This document shows positions 4,897-60,572 of a stretch of DNA of 64,000 nucleotides, in pieces. Under the pieces are notes generated by a model that saw only the letters and a program-made list of their open reading frames with translations, was not told the origin of the DNA and made no database searches. Position 1 is the first letter of the stretch; the number at the start of each line of letters is the position of its first letter. The position numbers and the translations under genes are program-made. Source of the stretch: Gemmatimonadota bacterium (GTDB taxonomy: Bacteria; Gemmatimonadota; Gemmatimonadetes; Gemmatimonadales; GWC2-71-9); the NCBI GenBank assembly GCA_016209985.1, contig JACQVB010000152.1:9539-73538 (forward strand), given 5' to 3'.

Positions 4897-5024
4897 AAAG
4901 CGGCGGGTAGGCGGTTAGACGGTTGGACGGTTAGTGAAAACGGGAGCTCGTTCGGGCTCCCGTTTTCGCGTTACCACCGGACTCACCAACCGTCCAGCCG
5001 TCCAACCGTCTACCCGCCGCTTTT
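4897..5024. repeat. Tandem-octamer hairpin element (GGACGGTT family), full palindrome
   Basis: Left arm aaagcggcgggtaggcggttagacggttggacggttag. Right arm caccaaccgtccagccgtccaaccgtctacccgccgcttt. The outer ends are perfectly complementary and the right arm carries extra units. Lies between convergent SusD-1 and thrC, and the right arm encodes the thrC C-terminus. Confidence 0.85.
4937..4966. terminator. Bidirectional intrinsic terminator at the core of the 4897-5024 element
   Basis: AAAACGGGAGC / tcgttcgg loop / GCTCCCGTTTT: an 11-bp stem including the A-run and T-run, so it can work on both strands between convergent genes. Confidence 0.65.
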
Positions 5025-6272
5025 CTCCACCAGCGCCGCCACCTCTTTGACTTTCGGTGCGATCACCGGCGCCTCCGGCAAGGCGCCGCTCACCGCCTCC
5101 ACCGTCTTGAGGCCGTTGCCGGTGATGCAGAGGACCACTTCGTCATCCGGTGTGAATCTGCCGGCGCGGGCCAGCGCCAGGGCGCCCGCTACCGTGACTC
5201 CTCCGGCGGTCTCAGTGAAGATGCCGGTGGTCTCCGCGAGCAGCCGGATCCCGGCAATCAGCTCGGCGTCACTCACCGCCTCGGCCCACCCCCCGGTCTC
5301 CTTCATCGCGCGCGCCGCGAACAGGCCGTCCGCCGGGTTTCCGATGGCGATGGAGCGCGCGATCGTGTTCGGCACGACCGGGGTGATTTCCTCGGCGCCG
5401 CTCTGCACCAGGTTCACGATGGGCGCGCAACCCTCGGCCTGGGTGCCATACAGTCGCGGGCATTTGCCGGATACCAGGCCGTCCGCGATGAACTCCTTGA
5501 AGCCCTTTTCCAGTTTGGTGAGGAGCGAGCCGCCGGCCATGGGCGCCACCACCGCCGTCGGGAGCCTCCACCCGAGCTGCTCGGCGATCTCGAACGCGAA
5601 GGTCTTGGAGCCCTCGCCGTAGTAACCGCGCAGATTGACGTTGACGATGCCCCAGCTGTAGCGGTCAGCGAGCTGGGCGCAGAGGCGGTTGACGTCGTCA
5701 TACGTTCCCCGGACCCGAACCAGTCGCGGCCCGTAGATCGCGGTCCCGATGATCTTGCCGATTTCCAGGTCGTGCGGCACGAAGATCCAGGCCACCAGGC
5801 CGGCCCGCGCCGCATGCGCCGCCACCGCGTTCGCCAGATTACCGGTCGAGGCGCACCCGACCGTGTCCAGCCCGAGCGCCTGCGCCGCGTTGACCGCGGT
5901 CGCCACGACGCGGTCCTTGAAGGACAGGCTGGGGTGACACACGCTGTCGTTCTTGATCCACACCCGACCCACCTCGAGCCGCCGCGCCAGCGCGGGTGCT
6001 TCGACCAGGGGAGTGAATCCGGTGTCCAGCGAAAGCTGCGGGTCTCCCTCAAACGGGAGCCACTCCCGGTAACGCCACAAGGAAGGCGCCCGCGACGCGA
6101 TCGTGCCGCGGTCGGGGCGGGGGCGCGCGGGATCGTAGTCGGGATCCAGCGGTCCCAGACACTGGCCGCAAATCGCCGCCGGTTGAGCCGGGCTGGTGTG
6201 ACCGCACAGCCGGCAGCGCAACGGCAAGACCCTGAGCGTCCGGGACTCACGAATCGGGGTGAGCGTCGTCAT
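5010..6272 (-). CDS. thrC: Threonine synthase (PLP-dependent, with N-terminal zinc ribbon)
   Basis: CRLCGH...CGQC zinc ribbon. PLP-lysine motif HPSLSFKDRVV. GNLANAVAAHAARAG and the glycine-rich loop are typical of ThrC. Start taken at the ATG at 6272 (MTTLTPIRE); the track ORF extends to 6329. Confidence 0.88.
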   Translation of the reverse strand: MTTLTPIRESRTLRVLPLRCRLCGHTSPAQPAAICGQCLGPLDPDYDPARPRPDRGTIASRAPSLWRYREWLPFEGDPQLSLDTGFTPLVEAPALARRLEVGRVWIKNDSVCHPSLSFKDRVVATAVNAAQALGLDTVGCASTGNLANAVAAHAARAGLVAWIFVPHDLEIGKIIGTAIYGPRLVRVRGTYDDVNRLCAQLADRYSWGIVNVNLRGYYGEGSKTFAFEIAEQLGWRLPTAVVAPMAGGSLLTKLEKGFKEFIADGLVSGKCPRLYGTQAEGCAPIVNLVQSGAEEITPVVPNTIARSIAIGNPADGLFAARAMKETGGWAEAVSDAELIAGIRLLAETTGIFTETAGGVTVAGALALARAGRFTPDDEVVLCITGNGLKTVEAVSGALPEAPVIAPKVKEVAALVEKSGG

Positions 6273-6493
6273 GATCCATGCTCCTGCTCGAAGCGTCCTT
6301 CTTGCTGGTGAGAGGACGCGGATGGCCAAAGAGCGGTGGGAAACAACAAACCCGCGACAAAACGCCGCGGGTCACTCGCTTTTTAGCCCTTGTTTAGCGT
6401 GGCGGCAATACGCGGCAAATCACCACGGTTCATCAATTGTCCGGATGCTACCTGCTCATTGGCGCCACTGTCAAGGACTGCCTTGCCGTACTT

Positions 6494-6521
6494 TTCCCTC
6501 TTCCCTCTTCCCTTCTCATCC
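6494..6521. repeat. Solo arm of heptamer array (TTCCCTC x3-4; complement of the GGGAAGA family)
   Basis: ttccctc ttccctc ttccctt ctcatcc, immediately 3' of the minus-strand gene 6526-7227. No complementary arm seen nearby. Confidence 0.7.
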
Positions 6522-6525
6522 GTGG

Positions 6526-7227
6526 CTAGATCTTGATTTGCAGACCAAGTCCCACCACCGGCCAGATCTTCAGGTACGAGCGGCCGTTCAGATCCTGCTG
6601 AATCTGGGCCAGCTCGTTGGTTACCTCGGTATCGAACTGGGCCTTGGCGGCGCCGGTGAGGGTGGTGGTCGCGGTGTAGCTCACCTTGGGAGTGCCTTGG
6701 AACATGGCGCCGAGCTCCAGGAGAATTCCCACCTTGCCCCCCATGACGAAGTCGAGTCCCGCGTACGGGGCGACCTTCGCGAAGTCGATTTTTCCCGTGA
6801 TTGTGCCGATCTGCGATGCCGTGTAGGTGGTGCCGCCGATGGTCGTGCTGATGGTGGGATCGGCGCTCACTTCCAGACGATTCCCGTTGCGGACCACACC
6901 GGCCGCGGCGTGAATCGGGCCGAGCAGATGCAGGTCGAACAGAGCATCGAACGACCGCCACTTCACGTTGCCGGCATAGAGGGTGTTCGAGATCGTCATT
7001 TCGCCGTTCAGGCTGGCCCACTGGCCGCCGGCGCGAATGCCCACCCGCGGCAGAAACTTGAACCCGATCTCCGGCCCGAACCCGAGGCTGGTGACCTTGA
7101 GGCCGACGGTAAGGCCGAGGCTGGGCGGCTTCGGTGCACCGGGGACCTGGGCGCCGGCCGGCGCAACCATGGCGATGGTGAGCACCGCGACCGCGATGCC
7201 GGCAGACCGAGGCGTGATCGTCATCAC
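6526..7227 (-). CDS. Putative outer-membrane beta-barrel protein (OmpW/porin-like), function unknown
   Basis: Signal peptide MMTITPRSAGIAVAVLTIAMVAPAGAQ. Alternating hydrophobic and Gly/Thr-rich beta-strand-like pattern throughout. No specific family recognised by eye. Confidence 0.5.
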   Translation of the reverse strand: MMTITPRSAGIAVAVLTIAMVAPAGAQVPGAPKPPSLGLTVGLKVTSLGFGPEIGFKFLPRVGIRAGGQWASLNGEMTISNTLYAGNVKWRSFDALFDLHLLGPIHAAAGVVRNGNRLEVSADPTISTTIGGTTYTASQIGTITGKIDFAKVAPYAGLDFVMGGKVGILLELGAMFQGTPKVSYTATTTLTGAAKAQFDTEVTNELAQIQQDLNGRSYLKIWPVVGLGLQIKI

Positions 7228-8054: not shown

Positions 8055-9428
8055 ATGCGAGCCCGCAACTTCGGTTTCTACGCTCTCGTCAGTGCGGTTC
8101 TCTACGTGCTGGGTGGGTCCAGCGCGCTGGCGCAGGCGCCGTTCCCGATGACTCCGCGCGCCAAAACCGGCGGGAGCTCAAACGTGAAGATGCTCGGACA
8201 TCTCCCGTTGGAAGGCTATTTCTCGCTGGGTGGAGTTGACATCGAGCAGGAAGTGTCGCGGCCCTTCGTCTACGTCTCCGGAATGAACGACAAGGTTGGC
8301 TTCACCGTCGCGAGCGTGGCGGATCCGGCCAACCCTAAAGTCATCTACCACTGGAGCTTTCCCAAAGTCGAGCGAGACTCGGGACTCGGCGGGGAGAACG
8401 GGCGGTACTTCAAGCTCAAGGGACGCTACTACTACGCCAAGACGGTGCAATTCAACGTGAGGAGCCCGAACGACAGTCTCGGCTTGATTCTGTTCGACGT
8501 GACCGGTCTGCCCGATCCCGCCACGGTCAAGGAGGTCGCCCACATCGGGGCCATCGGCGCGCGAGTAGTTCACGTCTTTCCCTACAAGCACTCTGACGGC
8601 CGCCTCCTGTTACTCACCACGCCGACGGTGGGCCCATACGCCCAGATCTACGACGCGGCGAAACTCCTGAGCAGTGGCGCCCAGGCCGCGCTGGTGTCAC
8701 AGGTCCCCATACCGGCCGACGTGAATCTCAAGCAATTCGCCCGCGGGTATCACGACTCGTACGCGGCGTACGATCCGTCGACCAGAATGGACAAGTTCTA
8801 TGGAGCGGGCACCGGTGGCTTTCACGTCTACGACATCTCCCGCCCGGAAGAGCCCAAACACCTGTTTTCGATGGCCGGGGGCGGCGGCGTGATTGCCGGG
8901 GGACACACGATCATTCCCACGCCGGACGGTCGCTACGCCGTCGGCACCACCGAGCGGCAGTTCTGGCCGGTGTTCGTCTGGGACCTGAGCCCCGGTTTGA
9001 GCGGCGAATCGCGGCTGCTGTCGCAACCGGCGGGATCGTGGGTAGCTGATTGGCAGGATGCAGCGCACATCGTCGAAGTCCGCTGGCCCTATGTGTTCGT
9101 GGCGTCATTCGAGGACGGGCTGCAGGTGTTCAACATCGCGAATCCGCGGCAGCCCAAGACGGAAGGCTGGTACTACACCTGCATGTGCGAACACCAGACC
9201 GGATGGAGCGGCTCGGTCACGAGGCCGGGCACCAGCGTCCTGAATGGCGCCGCCGATATCGACATCCGGAACGCCGACGGGCTGGTCGTGATGACCGACT
9301 ATACCAGTGGGCTTTGGTCGTTCCGCCTGGAAGGCTTCAACGGGTGGAACGGCAGGTATTGGCGGATGCCCAACATTTCAGAGGAGCAGGACTGGGACCG
9401 CGGGCCGGCGATCGCGCCGATTCCCTGA
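8055..9428 (+). CDS. Secreted LVIVD-repeat-like beta-propeller protein (paralog 1, most divergent)
   Basis: Signal peptide ...GGSSALAQA. Shares ordered motifs with 29675-31129 and 31248-32669: GGSSNVKMLGHLPLEG, SRPFVYV, RYFKLKGRYYY, LFDVTGLPD, GYHDSYAAYDP, FYGAGTGGFHVYDIS, GHTIIPTPDGRYAV, VRWPYVFVASFEDGLQVFNIANPRQP, DIDIRNADGLVVMTDYTSGLW, GFNGWNG. Confidence 0.7.
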   Translation: MRARNFGFYALVSAVLYVLGGSSALAQAPFPMTPRAKTGGSSNVKMLGHLPLEGYFSLGGVDIEQEVSRPFVYVSGMNDKVGFTVASVADPANPKVIYHWSFPKVERDSGLGGENGRYFKLKGRYYYAKTVQFNVRSPNDSLGLILFDVTGLPDPATVKEVAHIGAIGARVVHVFPYKHSDGRLLLLTTPTVGPYAQIYDAAKLLSSGAQAALVSQVPIPADVNLKQFARGYHDSYAAYDPSTRMDKFYGAGTGGFHVYDISRPEEPKHLFSMAGGGGVIAGGHTIIPTPDGRYAVGTTERQFWPVFVWDLSPGLSGESRLLSQPAGSWVADWQDAAHIVEVRWPYVFVASFEDGLQVFNIANPRQPKTEGWYYTCMCEHQTGWSGSVTRPGTSVLNGAADIDIRNADGLVVMTDYTSGLWSFRLEGFNGWNGRYWRMPNISEEQDWDRGPAIAPIP

Positions 9429-9824: not shown

Positions 9825-12497
9825 ATGCGTCAGATTCGTGCGCTGTATTGCGTCCTGGTGGTCGGGCTGGTCGGGTCGCCGGTGATGGCTCAGGGCCCGC
9901 CGCCGGGCCTTCGCCCGGCCAGGGGCTCCGAAGCGGCTCTAGACAAGAGCTCCCTGATTTCGGCTCTCGTGGGTTCTGCCCCGCACATCGATGGCGAGCT
10001 GAACGATTCCGCCTGGATGCACGTCCCCCCGATCTCCGACTTCGTGCAGAAAGAGCCGGATGAGGGTGGTGCTCCCAGCGAGCGCACCGAAGTCCGCCTC
10101 GTCTACGGCGATGACGCGCTTTACGTCGCGGCCCGGATGTATCACCGGAATCCGGCGGCGATCCGGCGCGCCGTGACCCGACGTGAGGGTGATAGCGACG
10201 CCGAAGTTCTGGACGTCTCTCTCGAAACCTACCTCGACCGGCGCACCGCCTACAGTTTTGCGCTCTCCTCGGGTGGCGTCCGGAAGGACTACTACCACGC
10301 GCAGGATTCCGAGGACGGTGCAGAGCTGACCTTCGATCCGGTATGGCAAGGGCGCAGTCGGGTAGACTCGCTGGGGTGGACGGCCGAGATGCGGATTCCA
10401 TTCTCGCAACTGCGGTTCACCGCCAAGCCGGAACAGGTCTGGGGTCTCCAGATCAAACGGGCGGTGCCGGACAAACATGAGACGGATTACTGGGTGTTGA
10501 TTCCGCGGGCGGCCACCGGATTCCCCTCTCATTTTGGTTTGCTGCGAGGGATCTCCGGCATCCGGCCAGCGCGGCGGCTCGAACTGCTGCCCTACACGGC
10601 GGGTGAAATGACCCTCCGGGCAAACCCGGATCCCGCCGACCCGTTTAACAGCAAGACCGGCGGGCGGGCGGGCGCCGACCTGAAGATGGGATTGGGCCCC
10701 AACCTCACGCTCGACGCGACGGTCAACCCCGATTTCGGTCAGGTGGAGGCCGACCCGGCCGAAGTGAACCTTACCGCCTTCGAGACGGTGTTCGACGAGC
10801 GCCGCCCGTTCTTCATCGAGGGCAACGAGCTGCTACGAGGTCGAGGACTCAATTTCCTGGGTCGCCCGACCTATTTCTACTCGCGCCGCATCGGGGCACC
10901 ACCGCACGTGGGCGCCGCCGGGGACTTCGTTCGCAGTCCCCTCAACACCACAATCGTCGGCGCCACCAAGGTGACCGGACGTCTCGCGTCGGGCCTCTCG
11001 GTCGGCGCCATGGGAGCGGTGACCCCGCGCGAGTGGGCCCGCACCTACTCGGTGACCTCCGGCGCTTTTGCCGACGTGCCGGTCGAGCCGCCGGCTGGCT
11101 TCGGCGTCATCCGGCTCCAACAGGAAGTCGGCCGTGAGAAGTCGACCCTCGGCTGGACGGTGACCGACGTGACCCGCTCGCTCAGCGGACCGGGAAGCCT
11201 GAATACGCTACTCGCGCGCCAGGCGAACACCGCGGGGACCGATTGGCGATTCCGGTTCAAGCAGGGGATGTACGAGTTCACCGGATACGCGGGCTACAGT
11301 CATATTGCGGGCGACGCCCCGGCCATCGCGCGGCTCCAGCGCACCAGCGCCCATTACTTCCAGCGACCCGACCAGACGCACGTTTCCTACGACCCGCAGC
11401 GCACCTCCCTGAGCGGCTATACCGCCGGCATCCGGGGTGACAAGAACGCGGGCCGCTGGACGGTTTGGGGCATTACGCTGAACACCCGCACGCCGGGTTT
11501 CGAGCTCAACGACCTGGGCCAGCTCCGCCGGGGAGATGAGATCGGCTTCAGCGGCGACTTCCAGCTGCGGGACACCAAGCCACACAAGAAGCTTCGCTAT
11601 TGGCAGGTCGGTCACAATTGGGGGACCAACTGGAATTACGGCGGCACGCGGTTGGCCTGGAGATTCAGTCAGAACATCCAGCTGACTTTTCCGAATTTCT
11701 GGCGGTTTTCCTACCGCACGAGCCTGACCACCCGAGGGCTTTCGGATGAGCTCACCCGTGGTGGACCGCTCATGCAGACGGCCAAGGGTTGGAGCGGGCA
11801 GGCGTCGCTGCAGAACCAGAACCAGGCAACCTACTACTGGACCGGCACGTTTAACTGGGGAGTCGACGAGCTGGACGGCTGGAATTGGCAGCTCAGCGCC
11901 GGATTGACTCTCCGGCCCGCGCCACGGTGGCAGGCAACGATCAGTCCCCGATACATCCGTTCGGTCGACGCACGGCAGTATGTCGCCACTCGCACCGGCG
12001 GATCCGCCGCCACGTTCGGGAGTCGTTACATCTTCTCGTATATCGAGCGGAGCACGATCGCTGCGTCGCTCCGATTGAACTACGCCTTCACTCCTGATCT
12101 CACGCTGGAGGCATACGCCGAGCCTTTCGCGGCCAGCGGGCGGTTCTACGATTTTGGTGAGCTGAGCGCGCCGCGGAGCCGCGTGCTCCGCACCTACGGC
12201 CAGGCGGCCGGCACCACGATCACGCGCCAGCCCGACCGGTCGTACGTGGTAACCGACGGCGCCGGCACGCTCACCATCGCCAATCTTGACTTCGATCAGC
12301 TTTCGTTCCGGTCCAACTTCGTGCTGCGGTGGGAATGGGCTCGCGGAAGCACGCTGTTCTTCATCTGGCAGCGGAACCTGCGCTCGTCGACGGCGCTGGG
12401 GGAACTGGTGCGGCCCGGCTCTCTGTGGGACGCAACGACTGCGGCGGGTGACAACTTCGTCGCCGTCAAGCTGACGTACTGGATTGCAGCGAAATAG
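9825..12497 (+). CDS. CBM9-like / DUF5916 domain protein (paralog 1)
   Basis: Signal peptide MRQIRALYCVLVVGLVGSPVMAQ. N-terminal IDGELNDSAWMHVPPISDFVQKEPDEG (CBM9/DOMON-like). Central NPDFGQVEADPAEVNLTAFETVFDERRPFFIEG, typical of DUF5916. Colinear with 56162-58828. The track ORF starts at 9717. Confidence 0.75.
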   Translation: MRQIRALYCVLVVGLVGSPVMAQGPPPGLRPARGSEAALDKSSLISALVGSAPHIDGELNDSAWMHVPPISDFVQKEPDEGGAPSERTEVRLVYGDDALYVAARMYHRNPAAIRRAVTRREGDSDAEVLDVSLETYLDRRTAYSFALSSGGVRKDYYHAQDSEDGAELTFDPVWQGRSRVDSLGWTAEMRIPFSQLRFTAKPEQVWGLQIKRAVPDKHETDYWVLIPRAATGFPSHFGLLRGISGIRPARRLELLPYTAGEMTLRANPDPADPFNSKTGGRAGADLKMGLGPNLTLDATVNPDFGQVEADPAEVNLTAFETVFDERRPFFIEGNELLRGRGLNFLGRPTYFYSRRIGAPPHVGAAGDFVRSPLNTTIVGATKVTGRLASGLSVGAMGAVTPREWARTYSVTSGAFADVPVEPPAGFGVIRLQQEVGREKSTLGWTVTDVTRSLSGPGSLNTLLARQANTAGTDWRFRFKQGMYEFTGYAGYSHIAGDAPAIARLQRTSAHYFQRPDQTHVSYDPQRTSLSGYTAGIRGDKNAGRWTVWGITLNTRTPGFELNDLGQLRRGDEIGFSGDFQLRDTKPHKKLRYWQVGHNWGTNWNYGGTRLAWRFSQNIQLTFPNFWRFSYRTSLTTRGLSDELTRGGPLMQTAKGWSGQASLQNQNQATYYWTGTFNWGVDELDGWNWQLSAGLTLRPAPRWQATISPRYIRSVDARQYVATRTGGSAATFGSRYIFSYIERSTIAASLRLNYAFTPDLTLEAYAEPFAASGRFYDFGELSAPRSRVLRTYGQAAGTTITRQPDRSYVVTDGAGTLTIANLDFDQLSFRSNFVLRWEWARGSTLFFIWQRNLRSSTALGELVRPGSLWDATTAAGDNFVAVKLTYWIAAK

Positions 12498-12566
12498 GTG
12501 CCAGTGCCAGGTTTCAGGTGCCAGAGTTGGGGGTCCCTGTCACCTGGGACCTGACACCTGACACCT
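12497..12566. repeat. Tandem-heptamer hairpin element (CAGGTGC family)
   Basis: Left arm ggtgccagtgccaggtttcaggtgccag. Right arm cacctgggacctgacacctgacacc. Lies between the DUF5916 stop and the kinase start. Confidence 0.75.
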
Positions 12567-12586
12567 TTCGCGTACATTCTTCCCCT

Positions 12587-14218
12587 ATGACGACTCCCCC
12601 TTCGAGCGGAGATCTGGCCGAGGCGCAGATCCACGAACGTCTCGCCAAGGCCCTGGGCGCCCAATATGAAGTCCGCGGCATGCTGGGCCGCGGCGGTTTT
12701 GCCGAGGTGTTTGAGGTCTGGGACAAGTCCCTCGAGCGGCGACTCGCGGTCAAGGTGCTCCGTCCCGATGTGGCCTGGACCTCCGGCATGCTGGCGCGCT
12801 TCAAGCAGGAAGCGAAAGCCGTCGCGCAGCTGGCGCATCCGAACATCCTGCCGATCCATTTCGTCGGTGAAGGCGAGGGCATCATCTACTACGCGATGCC
12901 CTACATCGAGGGCAAGTCCCTCGGCGATGTGCTTCGCACCGAGGGTCGCCTCACACCGGATCGCGCGCTCGCCATCGCGCGCTCCATCTTCGACGCCCTG
13001 GAACACGCCCACCAGAAGGGGCTGATTCACCGGGACATCAAGCCCGACAACATCATGATCGACCAGACCTCGGGCCGGCCCATGCTCGTGGATTTCGGGA
13101 TCGCCAAGCGGATGGAAGGTGGGAAGGGACTCACCCAGACCGGATTCGTCGTCGGTACGCCGCACTACATGAGCCCGGAGCAGGCGTTGGGGCAGGGTGA
13201 TCTCGACCCTCGCTCCGACATCTATGCCATGGGGGCGGTGCTGTTCCAGATGGTGACCGGCACCCCGCCGTTCGACGGCGATACGTCGCAGGAAATTGTG
13301 GCCCAGCACATCACCAAGCAGCCGCCGCTCGCCAGCGAGGTGGACGGGCACATCCCGCAGTGGCTTTCGGACGTGATCGTCCGCTGCATGGCAAAACGTC
13401 CGGCGGATCGGTTCGATAGCGCCCTTCATGCGTCGCAGGCGCTGACGGCCGGTCGGAAGTCAGGGCCCCAGCAGCCGGTGAGCGCTGAGCGGGTGGCACG
13501 CGCCGTGGACGACGAGCGCACCGCGGTGATACCGACGGCGGAGCGGCGGGCCTCGCGGCCGGTGGAGAAACCCTATGTTCCGCCCGATGCCTCGGGTGCC
13601 GCTCCGGCAAGGCGTTCGAAACTGCCGGCCGTGTTGGCCCTGATCGCCCTGCTCGCGCTGGCCGGCGCCGGGGCGTTCTTCTATCTGAATCGTGCTTCCG
13701 TGCTGGTCGAAAACCGCCTGGTGGAGCCGATCCAGCTAACCGCCGGCAGCGAGCGTCACACCATCGATGCGGGAGGCCAATTGACGTTCCCGCTCAAGGC
13801 CGGTGTTGGAGAGGTGAGATGGGTGCTGATCCGTCCCACCACGCCTCAGGGAATCGCCATGGGGCGGGAGATTGGCGGGACCCTGCCGACTGCGGGCCAG
13901 CGGGGCACGAGCCGGCTTACGGTGGACGGGATGTCGGTAGAGCCTCCCGCCTTTGCACCGCTCATCACCAATGAGACGAAGGGCTCGCTCGCCATCACGG
14001 TGAATGCCGGGTTGAGCGGGGCGACGTCATGCAACTGCTGGATACCCGCGGGGGCGACGCGCGCGCGGATCGGCTATTACCCGCTCTACCAGAACAGCAC
14101 GGTGCGCGCGGAGGACCAGTCGGGACGCGCGGCCGGCTTCGGCGATCTGGGCCCGGATGTGGACCAGACTACGGGATCGGTCGGGCTTCGATTTCAGGAG
14201 AAGGACTTCCGGAAGTAA
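12587..14218 (+). CDS. Serine/threonine protein kinase with single TM and unknown extracytoplasmic domain
   Basis: Hanks kinase motifs GRGGFAEV, AVKVL, HRDIKPDNIM, DFGIAK, GTPHYMSPEQ. TM LPAVLALIALLALAGAGAFFYL. About 190-aa C-terminal domain not recognised. Start taken at the ATG at 12587. Confidence 0.88.
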   Translation: MTTPPSSGDLAEAQIHERLAKALGAQYEVRGMLGRGGFAEVFEVWDKSLERRLAVKVLRPDVAWTSGMLARFKQEAKAVAQLAHPNILPIHFVGEGEGIIYYAMPYIEGKSLGDVLRTEGRLTPDRALAIARSIFDALEHAHQKGLIHRDIKPDNIMIDQTSGRPMLVDFGIAKRMEGGKGLTQTGFVVGTPHYMSPEQALGQGDLDPRSDIYAMGAVLFQMVTGTPPFDGDTSQEIVAQHITKQPPLASEVDGHIPQWLSDVIVRCMAKRPADRFDSALHASQALTAGRKSGPQQPVSAERVARAVDDERTAVIPTAERRASRPVEKPYVPPDASGAAPARRSKLPAVLALIALLALAGAGAFFYLNRASVLVENRLVEPIQLTAGSERHTIDAGGQLTFPLKAGVGEVRWVLIRPTTPQGIAMGREIGGTLPTAGQRGTSRLTVDGMSVEPPAFAPLITNETKGSLAITVNAGLSGATSCNCWIPAGATRARIGYYPLYQNSTVRAEDQSGRAAGFGDLGPDVDQTTGSVGLRFQEKDFRK

Positions 14219-14308
14219 GAAGTGAGAAGTGAGAAGTAAGAAGGAAGTGAGAAGTAAGAAGTAAGAAGGAGCTCGTCCTTCTCACTTCTCACTTCTCACT
14301 TCACTTCG
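14212..14308. repeat. Tandem-heptamer hairpin element (GAGAAGT family), full palindrome with unequal arms
   Basis: Left arm of about 8 units (gaagtaa gaagtga gaagtga gaagtaa gaaggaa gtgagaa gtaagaa gtaagaa gga). Loop gctcg. Right arm of about 5 units (tccttct cacttct cacttct cacttca cttc). Contains the stop codons of both convergent genes. Confidence 0.9.
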
Positions 14309-47975: not shown

Positions 47976-50900
47976 ATGAGGTACAGGTCTGTTCTATCGG
48001 CGTTAGCGTTGTTGTTCCTCGCCCTAGGGTCCGCGTCCGCCCAGACACGCATCGTGACCGGACGGGTGACGGACTCCCTGACCAACGAGGTGATCACCTC
48101 GGGTCAGGTTTCCGTTCAGGGGACGACGACCGGGACGACCATCGCGGATGACGGCACGTTTACCATTGCCGTGCCGATGCGCGACGTCGTTCTGCAAGTC
48201 CGCAGCATCGGGTTCAAGCGTAAGGACGTGGCCGTCCCCACCAGCCAGAATGCGGTGAACGCGAGTCTGGCGCGGGACTACTTCCAGCTCGAGGCGATCG
48301 TGGTTACCGGACAGGCCACGGGCGTTGAGCGCAAGAACCTGGCGAACGCCGTGGCCACGGTGAGCGCCGATCAACTGGTGAAGGCGCCCACGGCGAGTGT
48401 GGAACAGTCGCTCCAGGGCAAGATGGCCGGCGCCGACATCAACCAGAATAACGGCGCGCCGGGCGGCGGCAACATCGTCCGGATGCGTGGCGTGACGTCG
48501 ATCATCGGCTCGTTCCAGCCGCTCTACGTGGTGGACGGCGTGATCGTCAGCAACGCCGAGATCGGGCGCGGCACCAACCTGATTCAGCGGGCCTACACCG
48601 GGCCCGGGATCGTGCCGACCACCGACAATCAGGACAACGCGGTCAACCGGATCGCGGACCTGAATCCCAACGACATCGAGAGCGTCGAGGTGCTGAAGGG
48701 CGCCGCGGCCTCCGCGATCTACGGCTCCAAGGCTTCCAACGGCGTGATCCTGATTACCACCAAGCGCGGCCGCACGGGGGGCGCGCAGTACTCGCTGGTC
48801 CAGCGGGTCGGCGCTTCCAAAATCAGCAATACCTACGGCACCCGCTGCTACGCGAGCGCCGCCGAGGCTACCGCGGTATTCGGTGTCCAGGGAGGCACGG
48901 ACTTCGCGTCCGGGGTGTGCCATGACTTCGAGGACGAGCTCTACGGCAAGCCGGCCTACGCCACCGAGACCTCGGTCAGTGTGAGCGGCGGAAGCGAGAA
49001 CACTCGCTATTTCTCCTCGGCGCTGGTGAAGCATGATGGCGGGATCTCGCCCCGCACCTATGCCGACAAGCAGTCCCTGCGGCTGAATCTCGACCAGAAC
49101 ATCGGCAGCAGGATCCAGGTTGCGTGGAGCGGTGACATCATCCACGTCGCCAACGACCGCGGGCTGTTCAACAACGAGAACAACGGCAGTCCCTCGCAGG
49201 CCGCGCTCTCGTCCATGCCGAGCTTTATCGACTATCGGGGTGTTTGTCCGGACGGCAGCCGGGTGGAGAATCCCGGCAAGCCCTGCACCGGCGCCACCTA
49301 TCCGCGGACCTCGCCCTACGCTTTCAGCAATCCGTTCGAGTCGGTGGGGAGGGTATCGAACAAGGAGTCTGTGTGGCGGTCCATCTTCACCACCCGGGTC
49401 AATTTTGACCTGATCAGCAGCGCGCAGAACACGCTGCGCATCACCGGCAACGGCGGCGGCGACATCTTTACCCAGAAGAACCAGGTGATTTCCCCGCCCG
49501 ACGTGCAGTTCGAGGCGCTGGACGGGAAACTGGGCAGCTCGGCCATCGGGTTCGGGCAGAGCCAACAGTTCAACGTGAACGGCAACATCGTCTACACGTT
49601 CAAGACCAGCAGCGGGATGTCGGCCACGACCCAGGCGGGCATTCAGTACGAGACCAATGACCTGGATCGCGACAATACCCTGACCGAGAACCTCATCGGT
49701 GGGCAGACCAACCAGGGCCTGGGAACCGTGGTCACGGTGCAGCAGTATCGCGAACGCATCCGCGATCTGGGCTTCTTCGGCCAGGAAGAGCTGCTCCTCT
49801 TCAACGAGCGGCTGCTGTTGACGGCCGGCCTTCGCGCCGACAAGAGCAGCAACAACTCAGACCCGAAAAAGCTCTCCTACTATCCGAAGGGCGCGGCGTC
49901 GTACCGGCTTCCGGTCTCGGGCTTCCTGAGCGAGCTGAAAGTACGGGCGGCGATGGGCCAGTCGGGCAACCGGCCTTCCTACGGGCAGAAGTTCACCGCC
50001 CTGAACGGGGCGAACATCAACGGGCTGCCGATCTCGACCGTCAGCAACACCGCCGCGGCATCCGACCTCCGCCCCGAGCGCCAGACGGAGCTGGAAGGGG
50101 GCCTGGACGCGACCCTGTTCGGCGGTCGCGCGAACCTCGAGGTCACAGTCTACCAGAAGGGCATCAAGGACCTGCTCCTGACCCGGACGCTGACGCCGAC
50201 CGCGGGCTTCACCACGTTGGTCTATAACGGTGTGTTCAAGGATTCCACCGGGGCCGAGCAGACCACCCGGATCCGGAACAAGGGCCTCGAGCTGGCGCTC
50301 ACCATCCTGCCGGTGCAGACGCCTTCCTTCCAGTGGAATGCGCGGGGGACGTTCTTCAGGAACAAGTGCACGGTGCTCAGCACACCGGCCACATTCCGGC
50401 CCATCTCGTTCTTCAACTTCAACCAGTTCGGCACCACCCAGATCGAGAAGGACAGCTCCTGCACGCAGATCTACGCCAACGACAGTCTCGGCCGGTACGG
50501 ACCGAGCGACACCAAGAGACCGAACGGAACCACTGGCGTGATCGGCGAGGTGGTGAACCGGAGAATCGGTGATAACGCGCCCGACTGGCGGTTTGGCCTT
50601 TCGAACGAATTCACCTTCAAGCGGTTCAGACTCTACGCCCTGGTAGAGCACCAGCAGGGCGGCCTCATCGTGAACTTCAGCCGCTACACGTATGACGCGG
50701 TCGGCAACTCTGCCGATCAGAAGGTGGACGCCGGCTTCGGCTTGACCGGCGACCAGCGGGTGAACACTGCCAACAACAAGACGGCACTTGGGACCGCGAC
50801 CCACCCGGCTACGTATACCAAGCTGCGGGAAGCGTCGATCGGCTACGATCTTCCGACCTCGTTCACCAGAAAGATCTGGAGCGGCGCGCGCTACATTCGC

Positions 50901-51068
50901 CTGAACGTGACCGGGCGCAATCTGATGACGTGGTCCGAGTACAAGAAGGTGGGTTACGATCCGGAAGTGCAGCAGGTGGCCCGCTCGCTCGCGGTCGAAT
51001 CGACCTGGGAGCTGTGGGCCTATCCGTCGAGCCGCAGCGTCTACTTCACCGTCGACCTGGGGTTCTAG
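47976..51068 (+). CDS. SusC/RagA-family TonB-linked outer membrane receptor (copy 3)
   Basis: AGGAGGA RBS, then ATG at 47976. Signal peptide ...LGSASAQ. Same N-terminal domain and plug signatures (IESVEVLKGAAASAIYGSKASNGVILITTKRG). Terminal F. Confidence 0.9.
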   Translation: MRYRSVLSALALLFLALGSASAQTRIVTGRVTDSLTNEVITSGQVSVQGTTTGTTIADDGTFTIAVPMRDVVLQVRSIGFKRKDVAVPTSQNAVNASLARDYFQLEAIVVTGQATGVERKNLANAVATVSADQLVKAPTASVEQSLQGKMAGADINQNNGAPGGGNIVRMRGVTSIIGSFQPLYVVDGVIVSNAEIGRGTNLIQRAYTGPGIVPTTDNQDNAVNRIADLNPNDIESVEVLKGAAASAIYGSKASNGVILITTKRGRTGGAQYSLVQRVGASKISNTYGTRCYASAAEATAVFGVQGGTDFASGVCHDFEDELYGKPAYATETSVSVSGGSENTRYFSSALVKHDGGISPRTYADKQSLRLNLDQNIGSRIQVAWSGDIIHVANDRGLFNNENNGSPSQAALSSMPSFIDYRGVCPDGSRVENPGKPCTGATYPRTSPYAFSNPFESVGRVSNKESVWRSIFTTRVNFDLISSAQNTLRITGNGGGDIFTQKNQVISPPDVQFEALDGKLGSSAIGFGQSQQFNVNGNIVYTFKTSSGMSATTQAGIQYETNDLDRDNTLTENLIGGQTNQGLGTVVTVQQYRERIRDLGFFGQEELLLFNERLLLTAGLRADKSSNNSDPKKLSYYPKGAASYRLPVSGFLSELKVRAAMGQSGNRPSYGQKFTALNGANINGLPISTVSNTAAASDLRPERQTELEGGLDATLFGGRANLEVTVYQKGIKDLLLTRTLTPTAGFTTLVYNGVFKDSTGAEQTTRIRNKGLELALTILPVQTPSFQWNARGTFFRNKCTVLSTPATFRPISFFNFNQFGTTQIEKDSSCTQIYANDSLGRYGPSDTKRPNGTTGVIGEVVNRRIGDNAPDWRFGLSNEFTFKRFRLYALVEHQQGGLIVNFSRYTYDAVGNSADQKVDAGFGLTGDQRVNTANNKTALGTATHPATYTKLREASIGYDLPTSFTRKIWSGARYIRLNVTGRNLMTWSEYKKVGYDPEVQQVARSLAVESTWELWAYPSSRSVYFTVDLGF

Positions 51069-51070
51069 CC

Positions 51071-52513
51071 ATGACCCGCACAGAGAGGATTCGCGCTATG
51101 CGCACGTATCAGGCGACCGCCCTGCTCGGCATGGTTCTGACGCTGGGCGCGTGCAAGGGCCCGTTTGACGCCCCGAACCAGAACGCCAGCACGCTCAACG
51201 AGCTGGTGAGCGGCACCCCGAGCAAGGTGGCGGTGGCTACCGCGGCTCAAGGGTTGTTTTCCGGCATCCGCGGCGCCAACCAGGCGCTGGGATTGGGCAT
51301 TCTCGGACGCGAGGCATACAGCCTCGATGTCAGTAATCCCCAGAGTACGCCTCAGTTCTACACCACGTACAATCAGCTGACGGCGTACTGGGGAGCGTAT
51401 ACCAACAACAAGCAGGCGGACATCGTGATCGCCGCGGCGGACAAGGCGGTTGGCGTCACGGCGGCCGAGCGGGAAGGGTTCAAGGGCTTTGCCAAGACCA
51501 TGAAGGCCCTGCAGCTCTTCTATGTCATCCGCAATACGGATGTCGGCGGTGCGGCGCTGGATGCATTGGGTGACCCCACCGATCCGCCGCCCGCCATCGT
51601 CGGCAAGCCGCAGGTCTACGCCCAGATCCTGACCTGGCTGGATGAGGCCCAGACGCATCTGCTGGCGGCAGGCTCGACACTGCCGTTGTCGATGACCACC
51701 GGGTTCAGCGATTTCGGTACTCCGGCGACGTTCCTCAAGTTCAACCGAGCCATTCGGGCCAAGGTGAACCTCACCAACGCCGCGTACGCGGCGGCGCTGA
51801 CGGACCTTGGTGGCTCGTTCCTGGATGTGACCAAGCCGTTGTCATCCGGGGCGTACAACACCTACAGTACCCTCTCGGGGGATGCCCTGAATGGGCTGTT
51901 CGATCCCACCGCCCGGCAGCGGTATGCCCATGGATGGCTCGCAAGGGATGCGAAGCTTCAAGCGGGAGCCGCCCCGGGAGACACCACCAAACGAGATCTT
52001 CGGTTCCTGACCAAGATCTACGGCTTGCCGGCGTTTTCCCGGTACAACTTCAACATCAACTGGGCGTTCCAGCGGTATCCGACTAACACCACGCCCACAC
52101 CGGTCCTCAAGAACGAGGAGCTGATCCTGATTCGGGCGGAGGCGAACATTCAGAACAGCACCACGACCGGTGCGGACCCGCTGGACGACATCAACCTGGT
52201 CCGGACGACGTCCGGCAATCTCCCGGCGATCAGCGCAGCGACCTGGGCGCTGCTCAGCATCCCTGAGAAGCGGGACACCCTGCTCTACGAAAAACGCTAT
52301 TCCCTGATGTACGAGGGTGGCGATCGTTGGGTGGATCTGCGGAGATACGGTCTGCTGGGCACGTTGCCGGCAGACAGGAAAGCCGGGGTGGGGACGGTGA
52401 CGGTGACCGATCTCATCTGGCCGAACCTGCGCATTCCGGTGAATGAATGCGTGCCGAGGGGTGCCAATCAGCCGGCTGGCTGTACCGCGCAGCCTGGTAT
52501 TCCCGGAGTCTGA
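51071..52513 (+). CDS. SusD/RagB-family outer membrane lipoprotein (copy 3)
   Basis: ATG 2 nt after the SusC-3 stop. Lipobox LTLGAC. KNEELILIRAEA and LLYEKRYSLMYE motifs. Confidence 0.8.
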   Translation: MTRTERIRAMRTYQATALLGMVLTLGACKGPFDAPNQNASTLNELVSGTPSKVAVATAAQGLFSGIRGANQALGLGILGREAYSLDVSNPQSTPQFYTTYNQLTAYWGAYTNNKQADIVIAAADKAVGVTAAEREGFKGFAKTMKALQLFYVIRNTDVGGAALDALGDPTDPPPAIVGKPQVYAQILTWLDEAQTHLLAAGSTLPLSMTTGFSDFGTPATFLKFNRAIRAKVNLTNAAYAAALTDLGGSFLDVTKPLSSGAYNTYSTLSGDALNGLFDPTARQRYAHGWLARDAKLQAGAAPGDTTKRDLRFLTKIYGLPAFSRYNFNINWAFQRYPTNTTPTPVLKNEELILIRAEANIQNSTTTGADPLDDINLVRTTSGNLPAISAATWALLSIPEKRDTLLYEKRYSLMYEGGDRWVDLRRYGLLGTLPADRKAGVGTVTVTDLIWPNLRIPVNECVPRGANQPAGCTAQPGIPGV

Positions 52514-52517
52514 GCTG

Positions 52518-52650
52518 AAAGGGGAAGAGGGAAGCGGGAGGAGGGAAGCGTAAACCCTCACTCCTTAAGTGACGCGGCGCTTCGAGTACCTTCGGAGCGC
52601 CGCGTCAGTGTTTTACTCCTCCTTGTTCCCCTTCGCTCCGCTCAGGGGGG
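52518..52650. repeat. Purine-rich/pyrimidine-rich heptamer-array element (GGGAAGA-like) flanking a perfect hairpin
   Basis: Left ggggaagagggaagcgggaggagggaagcg. Right tactcctccttgttccccttcgctcc, which is imperfectly complementary. The right arm encodes the M20 C-terminus (...GAKGNKEE*). Confidence 0.65.
52570..52615 (+). terminator. Intrinsic terminator after SusD-3 (shared with the convergent M20 gene)
   Basis: TGACGCGGCGCT (52570-81) / 14-nt loop / AGCGCCGCGTCA (52596-607), followed by gtgtttt. Confidence 0.65.
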
Positions 52651-58828: not shown

Positions 58829-58994
58829 CGGGACCTCCAAGGAATTGCGACCTGTCTCGAGCACTACGGTCTGGTACCGAAGAAGTTGCGACCGTTCGGG
58901 TGGTTAGATGCCGTGGAAGAGGAAAGGGTTGCTTCGCGGCGGGTGGCGTTTCGGTCTGCACCGACGAGGGGGGCATGGGAGGCATGGGAGCGAT

Positions 58995-59095
58995 GAGGAG
59001 TAAGAAGTAAAAGAGGTAAGAAGTGAGAAGTGAGAAGTAAGAAGGGAGAAGTAAGAAGGGAGCCCGTCCTGGGCTCCCGTCTCACTTCTGTGCTT
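58995..59095. repeat. Tandem-heptamer element (GAGAAGT family) with long left arm, short right arm and a GC hairpin core
   Basis: gaggagtaagaagtaaaagaggtaagaagtgagaagtgagaagtaagaagggagaagtaagaa + GGGAGCCC gtcct GGGCTCCC (59058-59078) + gtctcacttctg. Immediately 3' of the minus-strand ferredoxin gene, so a likely terminator. Confidence 0.85.
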
Positions 59096-59369
59096 AGTGG
59101 GTAGCGCGGCCTTTGGCTACTTCGCGCTCGACGCCGCCTTCGAAGAACTCCTTGTTCTTGGCGATGTAGGACTTCCACTGGTCCGGCGTGTCTTCCTCGG
59201 GGAAAATCGCCGTCACCGGGCACTCTGGCTCGCACGCTCCGCAATCGATGCATTCGTCCGGATGTATGTAGAGCTGATCCGGGCCTTCATAAATGCAGTC
59301 AACCGGGCACACATCAACACACCCCCGGTCTTTCACATTGATGCAGGGCTCGGCGATGATATAAGGCAT
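59094..59369 (-). CDS. fdxA: 7Fe (3Fe-4S + 4Fe-4S) ferredoxin
   Basis: [26 protein letters not shown] (Cx7Cx3CP) plus [12 protein letters not shown] (CxxCxxCx3CP), the Azotobacter-type pattern. Confidence 0.85.
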
Positions 59370-59443
59370 GCTGTCTCCGACTCTTGGGATCGACCGGCGA
59401 AAGAATGACCGTAACCGCCATGTATGTCAAGCGGATACGTCCC

Positions 59444-59524
59444 GAGTGCGGAGTGCGGAGCTGGGAGTGCGGAGTGAACGGCCGCGAACCTACCACTCCG
59501 CATTCCGCACTCCGCATTCCGCAC
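59444..59524. repeat. Tandem-heptamer hairpin element (GAGTGCG family) in a divergent promoter region
   Basis: Left gagtgcg gagtgcg gagctgg gagtgcg gagtg. Right cactcc gcattcc gcactcc gcattcc gcac. Lies between the ferredoxin start (59369, minus) and the BtuF-like start (59585, plus). Confidence 0.85.
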
Positions 59525-59584
59525 TTGAGAACACTCCGTACTCAGGATTGCCTCTCCACCACGACGCTTACATCATTACATAGT

Positions 59585-60532
59585 ATGCGAATCGCCTCGC
59601 TGCTTGCCAGCGCCACCGAGATCGTCTACGAGCTGGGCCTGCAGGATCACCTCGTCGCGATCTCGCACGAATGCGATTATCCGCCCGACGCTCTGACCCG
59701 GCCTCGACTCAGCCGCCCGCATTTTGACCCAACCGGCCTCTCGAGCGGTGCCATCGATGCCGCGGTCCGGGAGAGCATGGCTCGCCACGGGAGCGTCTAT
59801 ACCATCGATGAGGACCTGCTTCGCCGCCTTCAGCCGGATCTGATTCTCGCCCAGGCGGTGTGCGAGGTATGCGCGGTGCCGACCTCGCTGGCGGCCACCG
59901 TTTCGGAGGCACTGGGAACCAGACCCCGCATTCTCTCCCTCGACTGCCACACGGTGTCGGATATCCTGGATGCGGTGGTTTTCGTGGCGGAAGCAGCCGG
60001 TATTGTCGGTCGCGGCAGGGACGTGTCCCGCAGGCTTCAGGGCCGGCTCGATCGGGTCGCAGCGCGCGTTCAGGGCTCTGCGCCGCCGCGGGTTCTCGCC
60101 ATCGAATGGCTGGAGCCTCCGTTCGTGCCGGGACATTGGACCCCGGAAATGATCACCATTGCGGGAGGGATCGACGTGTTCGGCGCGCCGGCGCGTCCAT
60201 CACGGCAGCTCACCTGGGAACAGATCTCGGGTGCAGATCCCGACGTCCTGGTGATCATGCCCTGTGGATATGGAATCGATCGGGCCCGCGCGGACGCCGG
60301 CCGGAATGCCGAGCGCCTCCTGGCCGTCGCGCCACGCGCGGTCGAATCCGGACGGGCCTATGTGGTGGACGGCTCAGCATATTTCAATCGGTCGGGGCCG
60401 AGGATGATAGTCGGGGTGGAGATACTGGGCGCATTGCTGCATCCGGAGCGGGCTCCGAATATCGATCTGACCAACAAAGCTCAGGTCTGGAAGCCATCAG
60501 CCATCAGCCATCAGAGCTTGGCGAACCTTTGA
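59585..60532 (+). CDS. BtuF-like periplasmic-binding-protein-fold protein (Peripla_BP_2) without signal peptide
   Basis: MRIASLLASATEIVYELGLQDHLVAISHECDYP and DLILAQ..C.VC are typical of cobalamin/siderophore-binding type III SBPs. No signal peptide. No obvious RBS, and TTACAT-ca-TTACAT sits directly upstream. The track ORF start at 59384 would read through the hairpin element. Confidence 0.65.
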   Translation: MRIASLLASATEIVYELGLQDHLVAISHECDYPPDALTRPRLSRPHFDPTGLSSGAIDAAVRESMARHGSVYTIDEDLLRRLQPDLILAQAVCEVCAVPTSLAATVSEALGTRPRILSLDCHTVSDILDAVVFVAEAAGIVGRGRDVSRRLQGRLDRVAARVQGSAPPRVLAIEWLEPPFVPGHWTPEMITIAGGIDVFGAPARPSRQLTWEQISGADPDVLVIMPCGYGIDRARADAGRNAERLLAVAPRAVESGRAYVVDGSAYFNRSGPRMIVGVEILGALLHPERAPNIDLTNKAQVWKPSAISHQSLANL

Positions 60533-60572
60533 TCGCGGTGCCCAGTGACGGCTGACGGCTGACGGCTGATGG
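60493..60572. repeat. Tandem-heptamer hairpin element (CAGCCAT family), full palindrome
   Basis: Left gccatcagccatcagccatcag, which encodes ...SAISHQ... of the BtuF-like C-terminus. Right gtgacggctgacggctgacggctgatggc. Confidence 0.85.

Follow-up and report, generated by a model that had tools for sequence, protein, structure and literature searches.

The stretch of DNA analyzed here (the window) comprises 64,000 nucleotides (nt) and corresponds to positions 9,539 to 73,538 of contig JACQVB010000152.1 in assembly GCA_016209985.1 of a Gemmatimonadota bacterium, a metagenome-assembled genome (MAG) of the Gemmatimonadales. Its GC content is about 64% throughout, and its gene content is that of an ordinary chromosome, with three SusC/SusD-like pairs, kinases, HEAT-repeat proteins, amidohydrolases, transporters, a ferredoxin, and peptidases. 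For the gene of the pyridoxal-phosphate (PLP)-dependent PALP enzyme, the nearest relatives are in Gemmatimonadales MAGs and reach 80% identity. Dispersed among these genes are elements composed of 7- to 8-nt units repeated in tandem, usually in the form of two inverted arms that can pair to a long stem. The feature is real, strongly non-random, and lineage-wide. The gene map was obtained with a codon log-odds caller trained on the long open reading frames (ORFs) of the window itself, and the ferredoxin ORF at 59094-59369 (minus strand) was added after direct reading of the region. Arrays were called with Tandem Repeats Finder, and each element sequence was also read directly. The 17 loci proposed in an initial annotation of the window are designated E1 to E17, while L numbers refer to compared contigs or loci elsewhere:

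E1, 4897-5024: paired octamer arms, CGGTTAGA × 3.9 (4904-4934) and CCAACCGT × 3.1 (4986-5010), enclosing a perfect A-tract/GC-stem/T-tract hairpin (4937-4966); flanked by the convergent SusD-like gene (stop 4892, plus strand) and PALP gene (stop 5010, minus strand).
E2, 6494-6521: solo arm TTCCCTC × 2.9 (GGGAAGA on the minus strand), 5 nt past the stop of gene 6526-7227 (minus strand).
E3, 12497-12566: paired, with a left arm of GGTGCCA type and a right arm CCTGACA × 4.4; begins at the stop of the DUF5916 gene (12497, plus strand), ahead of a Ser/Thr kinase gene.
E4, 14212-14308: paired, GAAGTAA/GAGAAGT × 8.6 and CTTCTCA × 3.6; between the convergent kinase gene (stop 14218, within the first units) and peptidyl-prolyl isomerase (PPIase)-HEAT gene (stop 14296).
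E5, 17194-17301, plus strand: direct array only, CGACCCGC × 11.4, with a 36-nt super-period × 2.8; read in frame within the first hypervariable linker that the BlaR1-like M56/HEAT gene 16948-19173 encodes.
E6, 17989-18172, plus strand: paired arrays GGACGGTC × 3.8 and ACCGTCCG × 6.8, separated by 99 nt; likewise in frame, within the second linker of that gene, encoding the peptides GRSDGRT and TVRPSDRPTV.
E7, 22844-22866: solo arm AGCCATC × 3.3, starting within the multicopper oxidase stop codon (22844, plus strand).
E8, 24351-24382: solo arm GAGGGAA × 4.4 with four G3 tracts, 2 nt past the stop of amidohydrolase gene 23012-24349 and 9 nt ahead of the next start.
E9, 27546-27580: solo arm ACTTCTC × 4.4 (GAGAAGT in gene sense), within the extra C-terminal tail of the amino acid permease gene 27514-28893 (minus strand), whose Pfam domain stops at residue 416 of 459.
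E10, 28899-28995: paired GTGAAGA/GGGAAGA arms with the inner boundary GGAAGAGTAAAAC; between the globin stop (28994, minus strand) and the permease start.
E11, 31127-31210: array ATTGCGG × 4.6 as the 5′ side of a long stem, which is predicted to contain about 20 uninterrupted pairs, with TTTTT after it; begins in the stop codon of gene 29690-31129 (plus strand).
E12, 39611-39692: paired, GGTGCGT × 3.3 and CCACTCA × 5.3; set between two convergent genes, for a cytidine deaminase (stop 39607) and a DEAD-box helicase (stop 39693).
E13, 41121-41246: paired GTGAAGA/GGGAAGA arms with GGAAGAGTAAAMC at both inner ends; its center holds a second, nested GGGAAGA-type hairpin, TTTTT then follows, and the element extends across the MFS stop (41232, minus strand).
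E14, 52518-52650: arm GGGAAGA × 3.9 and a degenerate complement, enclosing a GC stem of 17 bp and its T-run (52570-52607); flanked by convergent genes for a SusD-like protein (stop 52513) and an M20 peptidase (stop 52613).
E15, 58995-59095: AGTAAGA × 8.3 and only about 1.5 complementary units, beside a core hairpin (59058-59078); adjoins the ferredoxin stop (59094, minus strand), the array forming, in ferredoxin sense, a pyrimidine-rich tail past the hairpin.
E16, 59444-59524: paired, GAGTGCG × 4.7 and TCCGCAT × 3.9; in the divergent region between the ferredoxin and Peripla_BP_2 genes, directly upstream of a TTGACA -35-like box for ferredoxin.
E17, 60493-60572: paired, AGCCATC × 3.3 and TGACGGC × 4.0, the sole pair with the C-rich arm in 5′ position; the left arm supplies the final 13 codons of Peripla_BP_2, and the stop of this gene (60532) falls within the loop.

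Period-7 or period-8 arrays were recovered at all 17 loci. When arrays of period 7 or 8 with at least 2.8 copies were counted, the window contained 23, compared with a mean of 0.67 and a maximum of 3 in 30 dinucleotide-preserving shuffles; specifically, there were 18 period-7 arrays (0.27 in the shuffles) and five period-8 arrays (0.40). Periods 5, 6, 9, and 10 are essentially absent from the window. The density of loci amounts to about one per 3.8 kb, and at least nine unrelated unit types occur within the 64 kb, octamers besides heptamers. Super-periods of 25 nt and 36 nt at 96% identity represent recent multi-unit duplications. A nonamer array, GGGAGGCAT × 2.6, lies at 58968-58990 directly beside E15, with a period unlike that of every other element.

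The inverted partner arms described in the initial annotation are generally present, as exemplified by arms of 58 nt with 83% complementarity at 4880-5040 (E1), of 30 nt with 93% at 17990/18119 (E6), and of 31 nt with 87% at 28903/28955 (E10), but E5 proved to be a direct array without such a partner. Stem lengths range from 25 to 58 nt and the minimum free energies of the elements from -47 to -122 kcal/mol; for E16, folding z-scores of -6.7 to -8.5 relative to shuffles were obtained. The inequality of arm unit numbers is borne out by E4, with 8.6 and 3.6 copies, and the short GC hairpins reported to be enclosed in some elements were found at 4937-4966, 52570-52607, and 59058-59078. The four solo-arm loci mentioned in the annotation are E2, E7, E8, and E9, and many further solo arms occur in relatives.

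The same architecture was found in many independent MAG assemblies, and E17 is reproduced base for base in two Logan assemblies from separate sequencing runs. An assembly artefact, which the annotation had named as a possible refutation, is thereby ruled out. Two independent Logan contigs (L073 and L074) both start, with their position 1 at window position 59498, inside the right arm of E16, and the arrays appear to break short-read assembly graphs.

With respect to the genes, 13 of the 17 window loci start 0 to 14 nt from a stop codon or overlap one, so that the proposed placement at gene boundaries holds for the majority; the exceptions are E5 and E6, which are coding and lie in disordered linkers, and E9 and the left arm of E17, which lie in C-terminal tails and whose coding parts extend beyond the Pfam domains. 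Four loci are thus wholly or partly coding. Likewise, E16 was found in a divergent promoter region and not at a gene end; E15 adjoins the stop of the ferredoxin gene, which had not been listed. Elements occupy four of seven convergent junctions, nine of 20 co-directional junctions, and one of seven divergent junctions; the last are the longest noncoding stretches of the window and yet nearly free of elements. Among the arrays of relatives, 20 of 37 lie within 20 nt of a stop codon. The two arms follow a nearly invariant order: the G/purine-rich arm is in 5′ position in 24 of 25 pairs, on both strands (about 18 of 19 if orthologs and duplicates are left out), with E17 as the sole exception.

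Classical terminator cores lie within E1, E14, and E15, each with a T-rich run after the stem and, in E1, an A-tract before it. In a terminator scan, the cores of E14 and E15 passed and were the two best, while that of E1 nearly passed; in E15, the CTTCTTA array itself makes up the T-rich tail of the core, and TTTTT follows E11 and E13. Canonical sites consisting of a hairpin plus a T-run are not enriched in the window, with 11 compared with 12.1 and 6 compared with 12.5 in shuffles. The presence of stop codons in all three frames was considered as a property uniting the units; it holds for GAGAAGT and GTGAAGA and fails for GGGAAGA, GGACGGTC, GCCATCA, and TGCGGAT. At 12536-12578, the (CCTGACA)n arm of E3 provides the -35-like hexamer of a promoter-like match, CTGACA-16-TACATT.

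Some of the elements resemble one another beyond their periodicity. The core GTGAAGAGGGAAGAGTA, reported as common to E10 and E13, is indeed present in both, and the arms of these two elements are 92% and 80% identical, compared with 68 to 76% between E10 and its own orthologs. The motif GGAAGMGTAAAMC occurs at inner arm ends of E10, E13, and E14 (five matches versus 0.06 expected), the centers enclosed by these arms measuring 16, 47, and 53 nt, and GGAGCYCGTYC is common to the centers of E1, E4, and E15 although their arms differ. With one mismatch allowed, the latter motif shows no overall enrichment (18 versus 10.2), only the exact matches being concentrated in element centers. That the arms of E10 and E13 are more alike than those of E10 and its orthologs points to copying or gene conversion between loci within one genome. 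A metagenome scan with the 21-mer common to E10 and E13 gave only two matches (L057 and L058), both at one orthologous greA locus of another lineage, where a purine-first hairpin of GGGAAGA type that includes the exact E10 21-mer directly follows greA (137-157 in L057, 3143-3170 in L058). These contigs have a GC content of 54 to 61% and the gene order carB-greA / yhbY-rlmE, which we take to be proteobacterial on the basis of this synteny. Because of these hairpins, the architecture appears to be broader than one phylum. A scan of viral contigs with a 17-mer produced nine matches in contigs of 40 to 44% GC, which were taken as chance.

Among relatives, the density of period-7/8 arrays per 100 kb is 36 in the window, 13.2 at other Gemmatimonadota loci (336 kb), and 2.6 in Rokubacteria control loci of similar GC content (458 kb), whereas periods 6, 9, and 12 do not differ among the three sets. 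The elements occur across Gemmatimonadota, and an AGGAAAC/TTCCTGT pair is carried by L010, which is labeled G. aurantiaca. The preference for period 7 or 8 varies by genome, whatever the sequence of the unit. Comparison of orthologous loci, as suggested in the initial annotation, revealed differences in both presence and unit number, and elements sit at orthologous sites in genomes of 63 to 82% amino acid identity. In the syntenic contigs L054 and L055, in which a neighboring protein is about 82% identical, the E10 hairpin is kept with units GGGAAAC instead of GTGAAGA/GGGAAGA, and 13 of 34 predicted pairs show changes on both sides among the three orthologs. At the E9 site, L055 carries a (GGGGAGC)n array and L054 none, the permease there having 421 residues; at the E11 site, a GGAGGGA hairpin is found in L054, a plain terminator in L055, and nothing in L056; E7 is missing from the orthologous junction in L054. 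The E4 ortholog in L072 has the same GAGAAGT unit in 5.3/5.1 instead of 8.6/3.6 copies and a different loop, and L071 keeps inverted GGACGGTC pairs, in frame, in both linkers of the BlaR1-like gene, with an inverted GGACGGTC/CGACCGTC pair at the E5 linker. E4 and E6 retain both unit and site across about 65% amino acid identity.

Three contigs from very close relatives, encoding an identical ferredoxin protein (L068 to L070), give a view of recent change. E16 is kept in all of them, with four of 29 pairs changed on both sides in L068. At the position of E15 they have a plain CCCCGGCC..GGCCGGGGTTTT terminator, about 150 nt being replaced by about 95 nt, with neither a clean insertion nor a duplication. 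This single presence/absence case is a wholesale replacement of the 3′ region and agrees with the earlier statement that terminal inverted repeats plus target duplications of the type found in MITEs (miniature inverted-repeat transposable elements) are missing. A new (GACACCT)n array is located just before the ferredoxin start, with 6.4, 4.4, and 4.4 copies, respectively. In L068 (495-539), the CCTGACA unit stands as a solo array right before the ferredoxin start and replaces the GGAGA Shine-Dalgarno-like sequence of the window. GAGAAGT and CCTGACA arrays were also found at non-orthologous loci of relatives (L056 and L068). Gain, loss, unit turnover, and copy-number change are thus all seen among relatives. 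The annotation had regarded the elements as one dispersed family; the data describe a class that is found throughout the lineage, comprises many unit types, and is maintained at orthologous sites, although some of the homology between loci, as for E10 and E13, is real.

Two further sets of arrays were observed elsewhere. An inverted octamer pair, CGGAACGC × 3.6 and GCCGTTCC × 4.4 with 8 nt between the arms, is identical in two MAGs (L006, 9007-9077; L015, 9008-9078) and was placed by the gene caller in coding sequence, 755 nt from the stop. Solo pyrimidine-rich arrays with the units CCCGTCTT, CTCGTCTT, CCCGTCC, and CGACTCC occupy the short gap that separates PALP from its downstream gene in four genera (L012, 9280-9304; L013, 11220-11244; L016, 11225-11246; L018, 1599-1619), the position being conserved while the unit drifts. 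Judging from its N-terminal sequence, the product of the gene after PALP looks like a sulfur carrier of the ThiS/MoaD type.

We favor, with a probability of roughly 50%, the interpretation that the elements are stems grown by slippage which act as terminators and as hairpins protecting 3′ ends, with little dependence on a U-tract, a role inferred from their position. A stem-loop function at transcript ends is preferred because the elements are located at stop codons, are enriched at convergent junctions, contain terminator cores, have co-varying arms, and are polar. Replication slippage, with a step of 7 to 8 nt preferred in this lineage, would create the arrays and alter their length. Slippage-type growth, already suspected in the initial annotation, is well supported by the 6.4, 4.4, and 4.4 copies in near-identical strains, the differing copy numbers of E4 and its ortholog, and the super-periods of 25 and 36 nt. 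Complementarity of the arms may be kept by selection for the stem, by palindrome-templated (template-switch) repair, or by both, and ectopic copying or gene conversion would homogenize arms between loci of one genome. The long RNA stem would then serve as a factor-independent terminator and as a block to 3′ exonucleases, often in both directions. Hybrids of purine RNA and pyrimidine DNA are more stable than the reverse. With the purine-first order, the arm transcribed last, together with surplus 3′ units, could provide a hybrid of pyrimidine RNA and purine DNA, the weakest type, in place of the U-tract, and such a substitute fits a genome in which canonical hairpin-plus-T-run terminators are no more common than expected by chance. 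The E. coli repetitive extragenic palindromes (REPs) have been described as terminators in 3′ untranslated regions as well as stabilizers of mRNA (bioRxiv 10.64898/2026.03.23.713779), and by analogy with them we favor a combination of termination and 3′ protection.

Several observations weigh against this interpretation. E16 is conserved between divergent genes, where no transcript should need ending, and E5, E6, the pairs in L071, and the octamer pair at 9007-9077 in L006/L015 are located within coding sequence, in which termination would do harm; no hairpin can be formed by a solo arm. The outer stems have no consistent T-run and most lack one, according to an automatic scoring of T-tails that is muddied by flanking sequence. 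Mismatches between arms are mostly transitions and evenly split between the strands: the comparison of G-U-compatible with A-C mismatches gave 17 for the plus and 21 for the minus strand, which is a weak test, and no strand-specific G-U signature of selection at the RNA level was seen. The gene map from which the positions were read is, moreover, the product of a home-made caller, and arrays that extend up to or into stop codons fit unconstrained growth into tolerated space equally well.

The last point leads to a rather unlikely alternative, in which the arrays are by-products of DNA-level processes, either neutral or selfish: a quirk of replication or repair in this lineage, combining slippage of 7 to 8 nt with palindrome-templated copying, would produce arrays without a function of their own, and these would pile up wherever they are tolerated, i.e., in 3′ untranslated DNA around existing terminator hairpins, in disordered linkers, and in C-terminal tails. 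Such an origin would account for arrays that reach stop codons and enter coding tails (E4, E9, and E17), for in-frame copies in hypervariable linkers, for the many solo arms and the rapid gain, loss, and copy-number change between near-identical strains, for a plain terminator or nothing at some orthologous sites, for a preference between periods 7 and 8 that is genome-specific and independent of the unit sequence, for the lack of strand bias in G-U-compatible mismatches, and for the presence of E16 in a divergent region. It is at odds with the polarity seen in 24 of 25 pairs, which is symmetric about the hairpin center and is not predicted by leading/lagging-strand asymmetry, so that an extra polar step would be needed. 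Neither does it anticipate the retention of unit and site by E4 and E6 at about 65% amino acid identity, the conservation of E16 with compensatory changes, or the occupation of only one of seven divergent junctions in spite of their length. The elements could instead be non-autonomous and mobile, of the MITE type or of the type of REPs and their hairpin-forming doublets (REPINs), which a transposase encoded elsewhere copies between terminator-like targets and which slippage decorates later. The same unit families do occur at unlinked loci, the likeness of paralogous E10 and E13 (92% and 80% in the arms) exceeds that of orthologs, the shared motifs GGAAGMGTAAAMC at five inner arm ends and GGAGCYCGTYC in the centers of E1, E4, and E15 are not periodic, GAGAAGT and CCTGACA arrays recur at non-orthologous loci of relatives (L056 and L068), and a near-identical 21-mer is present in the same context at the greA locus of contigs taken as proteobacterial. 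Mobility nevertheless appears very unlikely, given that the conserved motif is at the inner ends, with no outer terminal inverted repeats and no target-site duplications, that no transposase or Y1 (RAYT-type) domain was detected among the proteins of the 64-kb window scanned with Pfam, that orthologous sites are occupied in genomes of just 63 to 82% amino acid identity, that in the sole presence/absence case about 150 nt are exchanged for about 95 nt and nothing is inserted, and that at least nine unrelated unit types would demand many separate element families. The homology between loci does, however, call for a copying mechanism of some kind.

Equally hard to sustain is the proposal that the arrays are regulatory platforms, with multiple sites for a protein that binds once per 7 to 8 nt (a cold-shock-type, Rho-type, or other single-strand binder) or with a non-B structure such as a G-quadruplex (G4), the hairpin being secondary. 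The GGGAAGA family with at least four G3 tracts (E8, E14, L054, and L055) would be suited to it and resembles the Xanthomonas and Nostoc repeats that form G4 in vitro (Rehm et al. 2015, PLoS One, PMC4692102); as cited in PMC4679880, CspB was reported to bind heptamer repeats with one protein per unit. The solo arrays in operon spacers or 5′ leaders, after PALP (L012, L013, L016, and L018) and before ferredoxin (L068), and the -35-like hexamers provided by the CCTGACA array could be understood in the same way. However, GAGAAGT, GGACGGTY, TGCGGAT, CAGCCAT, GTGCGTG, GAGTGCG, and CAGGTGC contain no G3 tracts and would form no stable G4, the units are too diverse for one sequence-specific binder, and the arms co-vary so as to keep pairing, for which a single-strand platform has no need. 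Models based on a G-quadruplex or a protein platform are suited only to the GGGAAGA family or to solo arms. In a wider and improbable scenario, the heptamer and octamer palindromes would constitute a self-propagating, transposase-independent system present in several phyla (Gemmatimonadota, Xanthomonas, cyanobacteria, and, apparently, the proteobacterial greA locus): G-rich repeats would be written at the DNA level in a polar manner towards the hairpin center and copied between loci, and the products would be used as bidirectional terminators without a U-tract. The writing process might be template switching or 3′-end extension at hairpin-stalled or broken forks. Such a system, if true, would explain the long-noted excess of 7-nt repeats in bacterial genomes.

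Some features of the surrounding sequence deserve separate mention. An Rfam 15 scan of the window with gathering scores gave no match at any element, and its sole match was a SAM_alpha (SAM-II) riboswitch at 6362-6436 (minus strand), scoring 36.8 bits at a gathering threshold of 36 bits. It sits upstream of the PALP enzyme gene, in a host outside the Alphaproteobacteria, the namesake of the family, and is preceded by a promoter-like site, TTGACA-18-TAGCAT (6474-6445, minus strand); E2 is located just upstream of both. No tRNA or tmRNA genes were found in the window. Three paralogous proteins of about 475 residues without a Pfam domain are encoded at 8055-9428, 29690-31129, and 31248-32669. This family has 2386 homologs at E ≤ 1e-30 and is multi-copy in Gemmatimonadota genomes, at least 10 among the matches listed falling on one 3.86-Mb contig. 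The three SusC/SusD-like pairs, each a TonB-dependent receptor plus a lipoprotein (409-4892, 43017-47602, and 48012-52513), are paralogous as well, with 72 to 80% DNA identity over stretches of up to 300 nt. The BlaI/BlaR1-like operon at 16560-20655 encodes an M56 sensor-protease, extended at its C terminus by a long HEAT-repeat domain, and after it another HEAT-repeat protein; such an arrangement is widely distributed among Gemmatimonadota and Thermoanaerobaculia.

That heptamer repeats are in excess in bacteria has been on record since 2007, and neither this excess nor the inverted heptamer pairs of Xanthomonas, described in 2015, have an accepted function or mechanism. The elements sharpen an old open question rather than found a new category, and they do so in an extreme form that is easier to analyze, with strict purine-first polarity, wrapped terminator cores, co-variation of arms, and copy-number change between strains. 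The many unit types imply that neither the unit sequence nor G-quadruplex potential can be the common factor. Molecular genetics hardly exists for Gemmatimonadota, a phylum widespread in soil; should the stems be its main terminators, another model would be needed there for predicting terminators and calling operons. The elements would further be a suitable system for asking how functional RNA structure is built by slippage and palindrome-templated repair. In practical terms, the arrays appear to break short-read assemblies, and they create or extend protein C termini and linkers.

Among known repeat systems, CRISPR arrays can be set aside, as stated before, since the units are contiguous, only 7 to 8 nt long, and accompanied by an inverted partner, in place of 23- to 50-nt repeats with unique spacers. 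MITEs are likewise rejected on account of the conserved motif at inner arm ends and the E15 empty site, which shows replacement without duplication. A REP is a single imperfect palindrome of 20 to 40 nt with a family consensus (with a conserved GTAG end in E. coli and Pseudomonas) that is mobilized by RAYT transposases. Like REPs, bacterial interspersed mosaic elements (BIMEs), and REPINs, the elements of the window are abundant extragenic palindromes at gene 3′ ends and convergent junctions that undergo concerted evolution within a genome; unlike them, their arms consist of tandem 7- to 8-nt units in variable number and of at least nine types without a common consensus, and an assignment to this class was rejected on these grounds. 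No RAYT-like gene was seen among the window proteins scanned. In E. coli, REPs act as partial terminators. Canonical bidirectional intrinsic terminators share the position after stop codons, mainly between convergent genes, the GC-rich stem, and the textbook core seen in E1, E14, and E15, but not the outer stems of 25 to 58 bp made of repeats, mostly without a U-tract, nor the occurrence of copies away from transcript ends. The DNA uptake sequences of Neisseria are a short oligomer made frequent by a genome-wide drive, whose inverted pairs, found preferentially at gene 3′ ends, double as terminator stems; they differ from the present elements in being single 10- to 12-nt sequences, not in tandem, and driven by transformation uptake bias, and no sign of uptake specificity was seen here. 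The short tandemly repeated repetitive (STRR) sequences of cyanobacteria and the TAACTGA heptamers of Beggiatoaceae are, as here, dispersed, mostly intergenic tandem arrays of a 7-nt unit with variable copy number; one unit dominates in them, they lack the architecture of a hairpin, and they form direct arrays mainly just upstream of start codons, with one inverted case among 170 sets (PMC4679880).

Literature searches on Gemmatimonadota repeats returned nothing relevant and no description of these elements. The impression of the initial annotation that they match no described family thus holds as far as Rfam and REPs are concerned, but inverted pairs of heptamer arrays near the upstream ORF have been reported in Xanthomonas (PMC4692102). 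The repeats of Xanthomonas (GGGAATC) and Nostoc (GGGGAYT) are tandem 7-nt units in 2 to 26 copies, are 89 to 93% intergenic at a mean distance of 28 nt from the upstream ORF, often overlapping its stop, are under-represented between divergent genes, and are not linked to insertion sequence (IS) elements; 70 to 75 convergently oriented array pairs occur per Xanthomonas genome, with 186 arrays in one genome, and array length differs between related species while the single or inverted-pair type is kept, no function having been found (PMC4692102). The tandem 7-nt excess, the proximity to stops, the rarity at divergent junctions, the G-rich-first convergent pairs, and the variation of unit number at kept sites are all shared with the window. 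Specific to the latter are at least nine unit types instead of one, the additional octamers, the higher density, the in-frame copies in coding linkers, and the different phylum, and only the GGGAAGA family has G3 tracts, in a sequence different from the G4-capable GGGNATC-type unit with at least four such tracts. Compensatory evolution of arms and wrapped terminator cores are documented here and not in PMC4692102. Overall, the Xanthomonas/Nostoc heptamer class is the closest described phenomenon, with all architectural features in common except the G4-capable unit.

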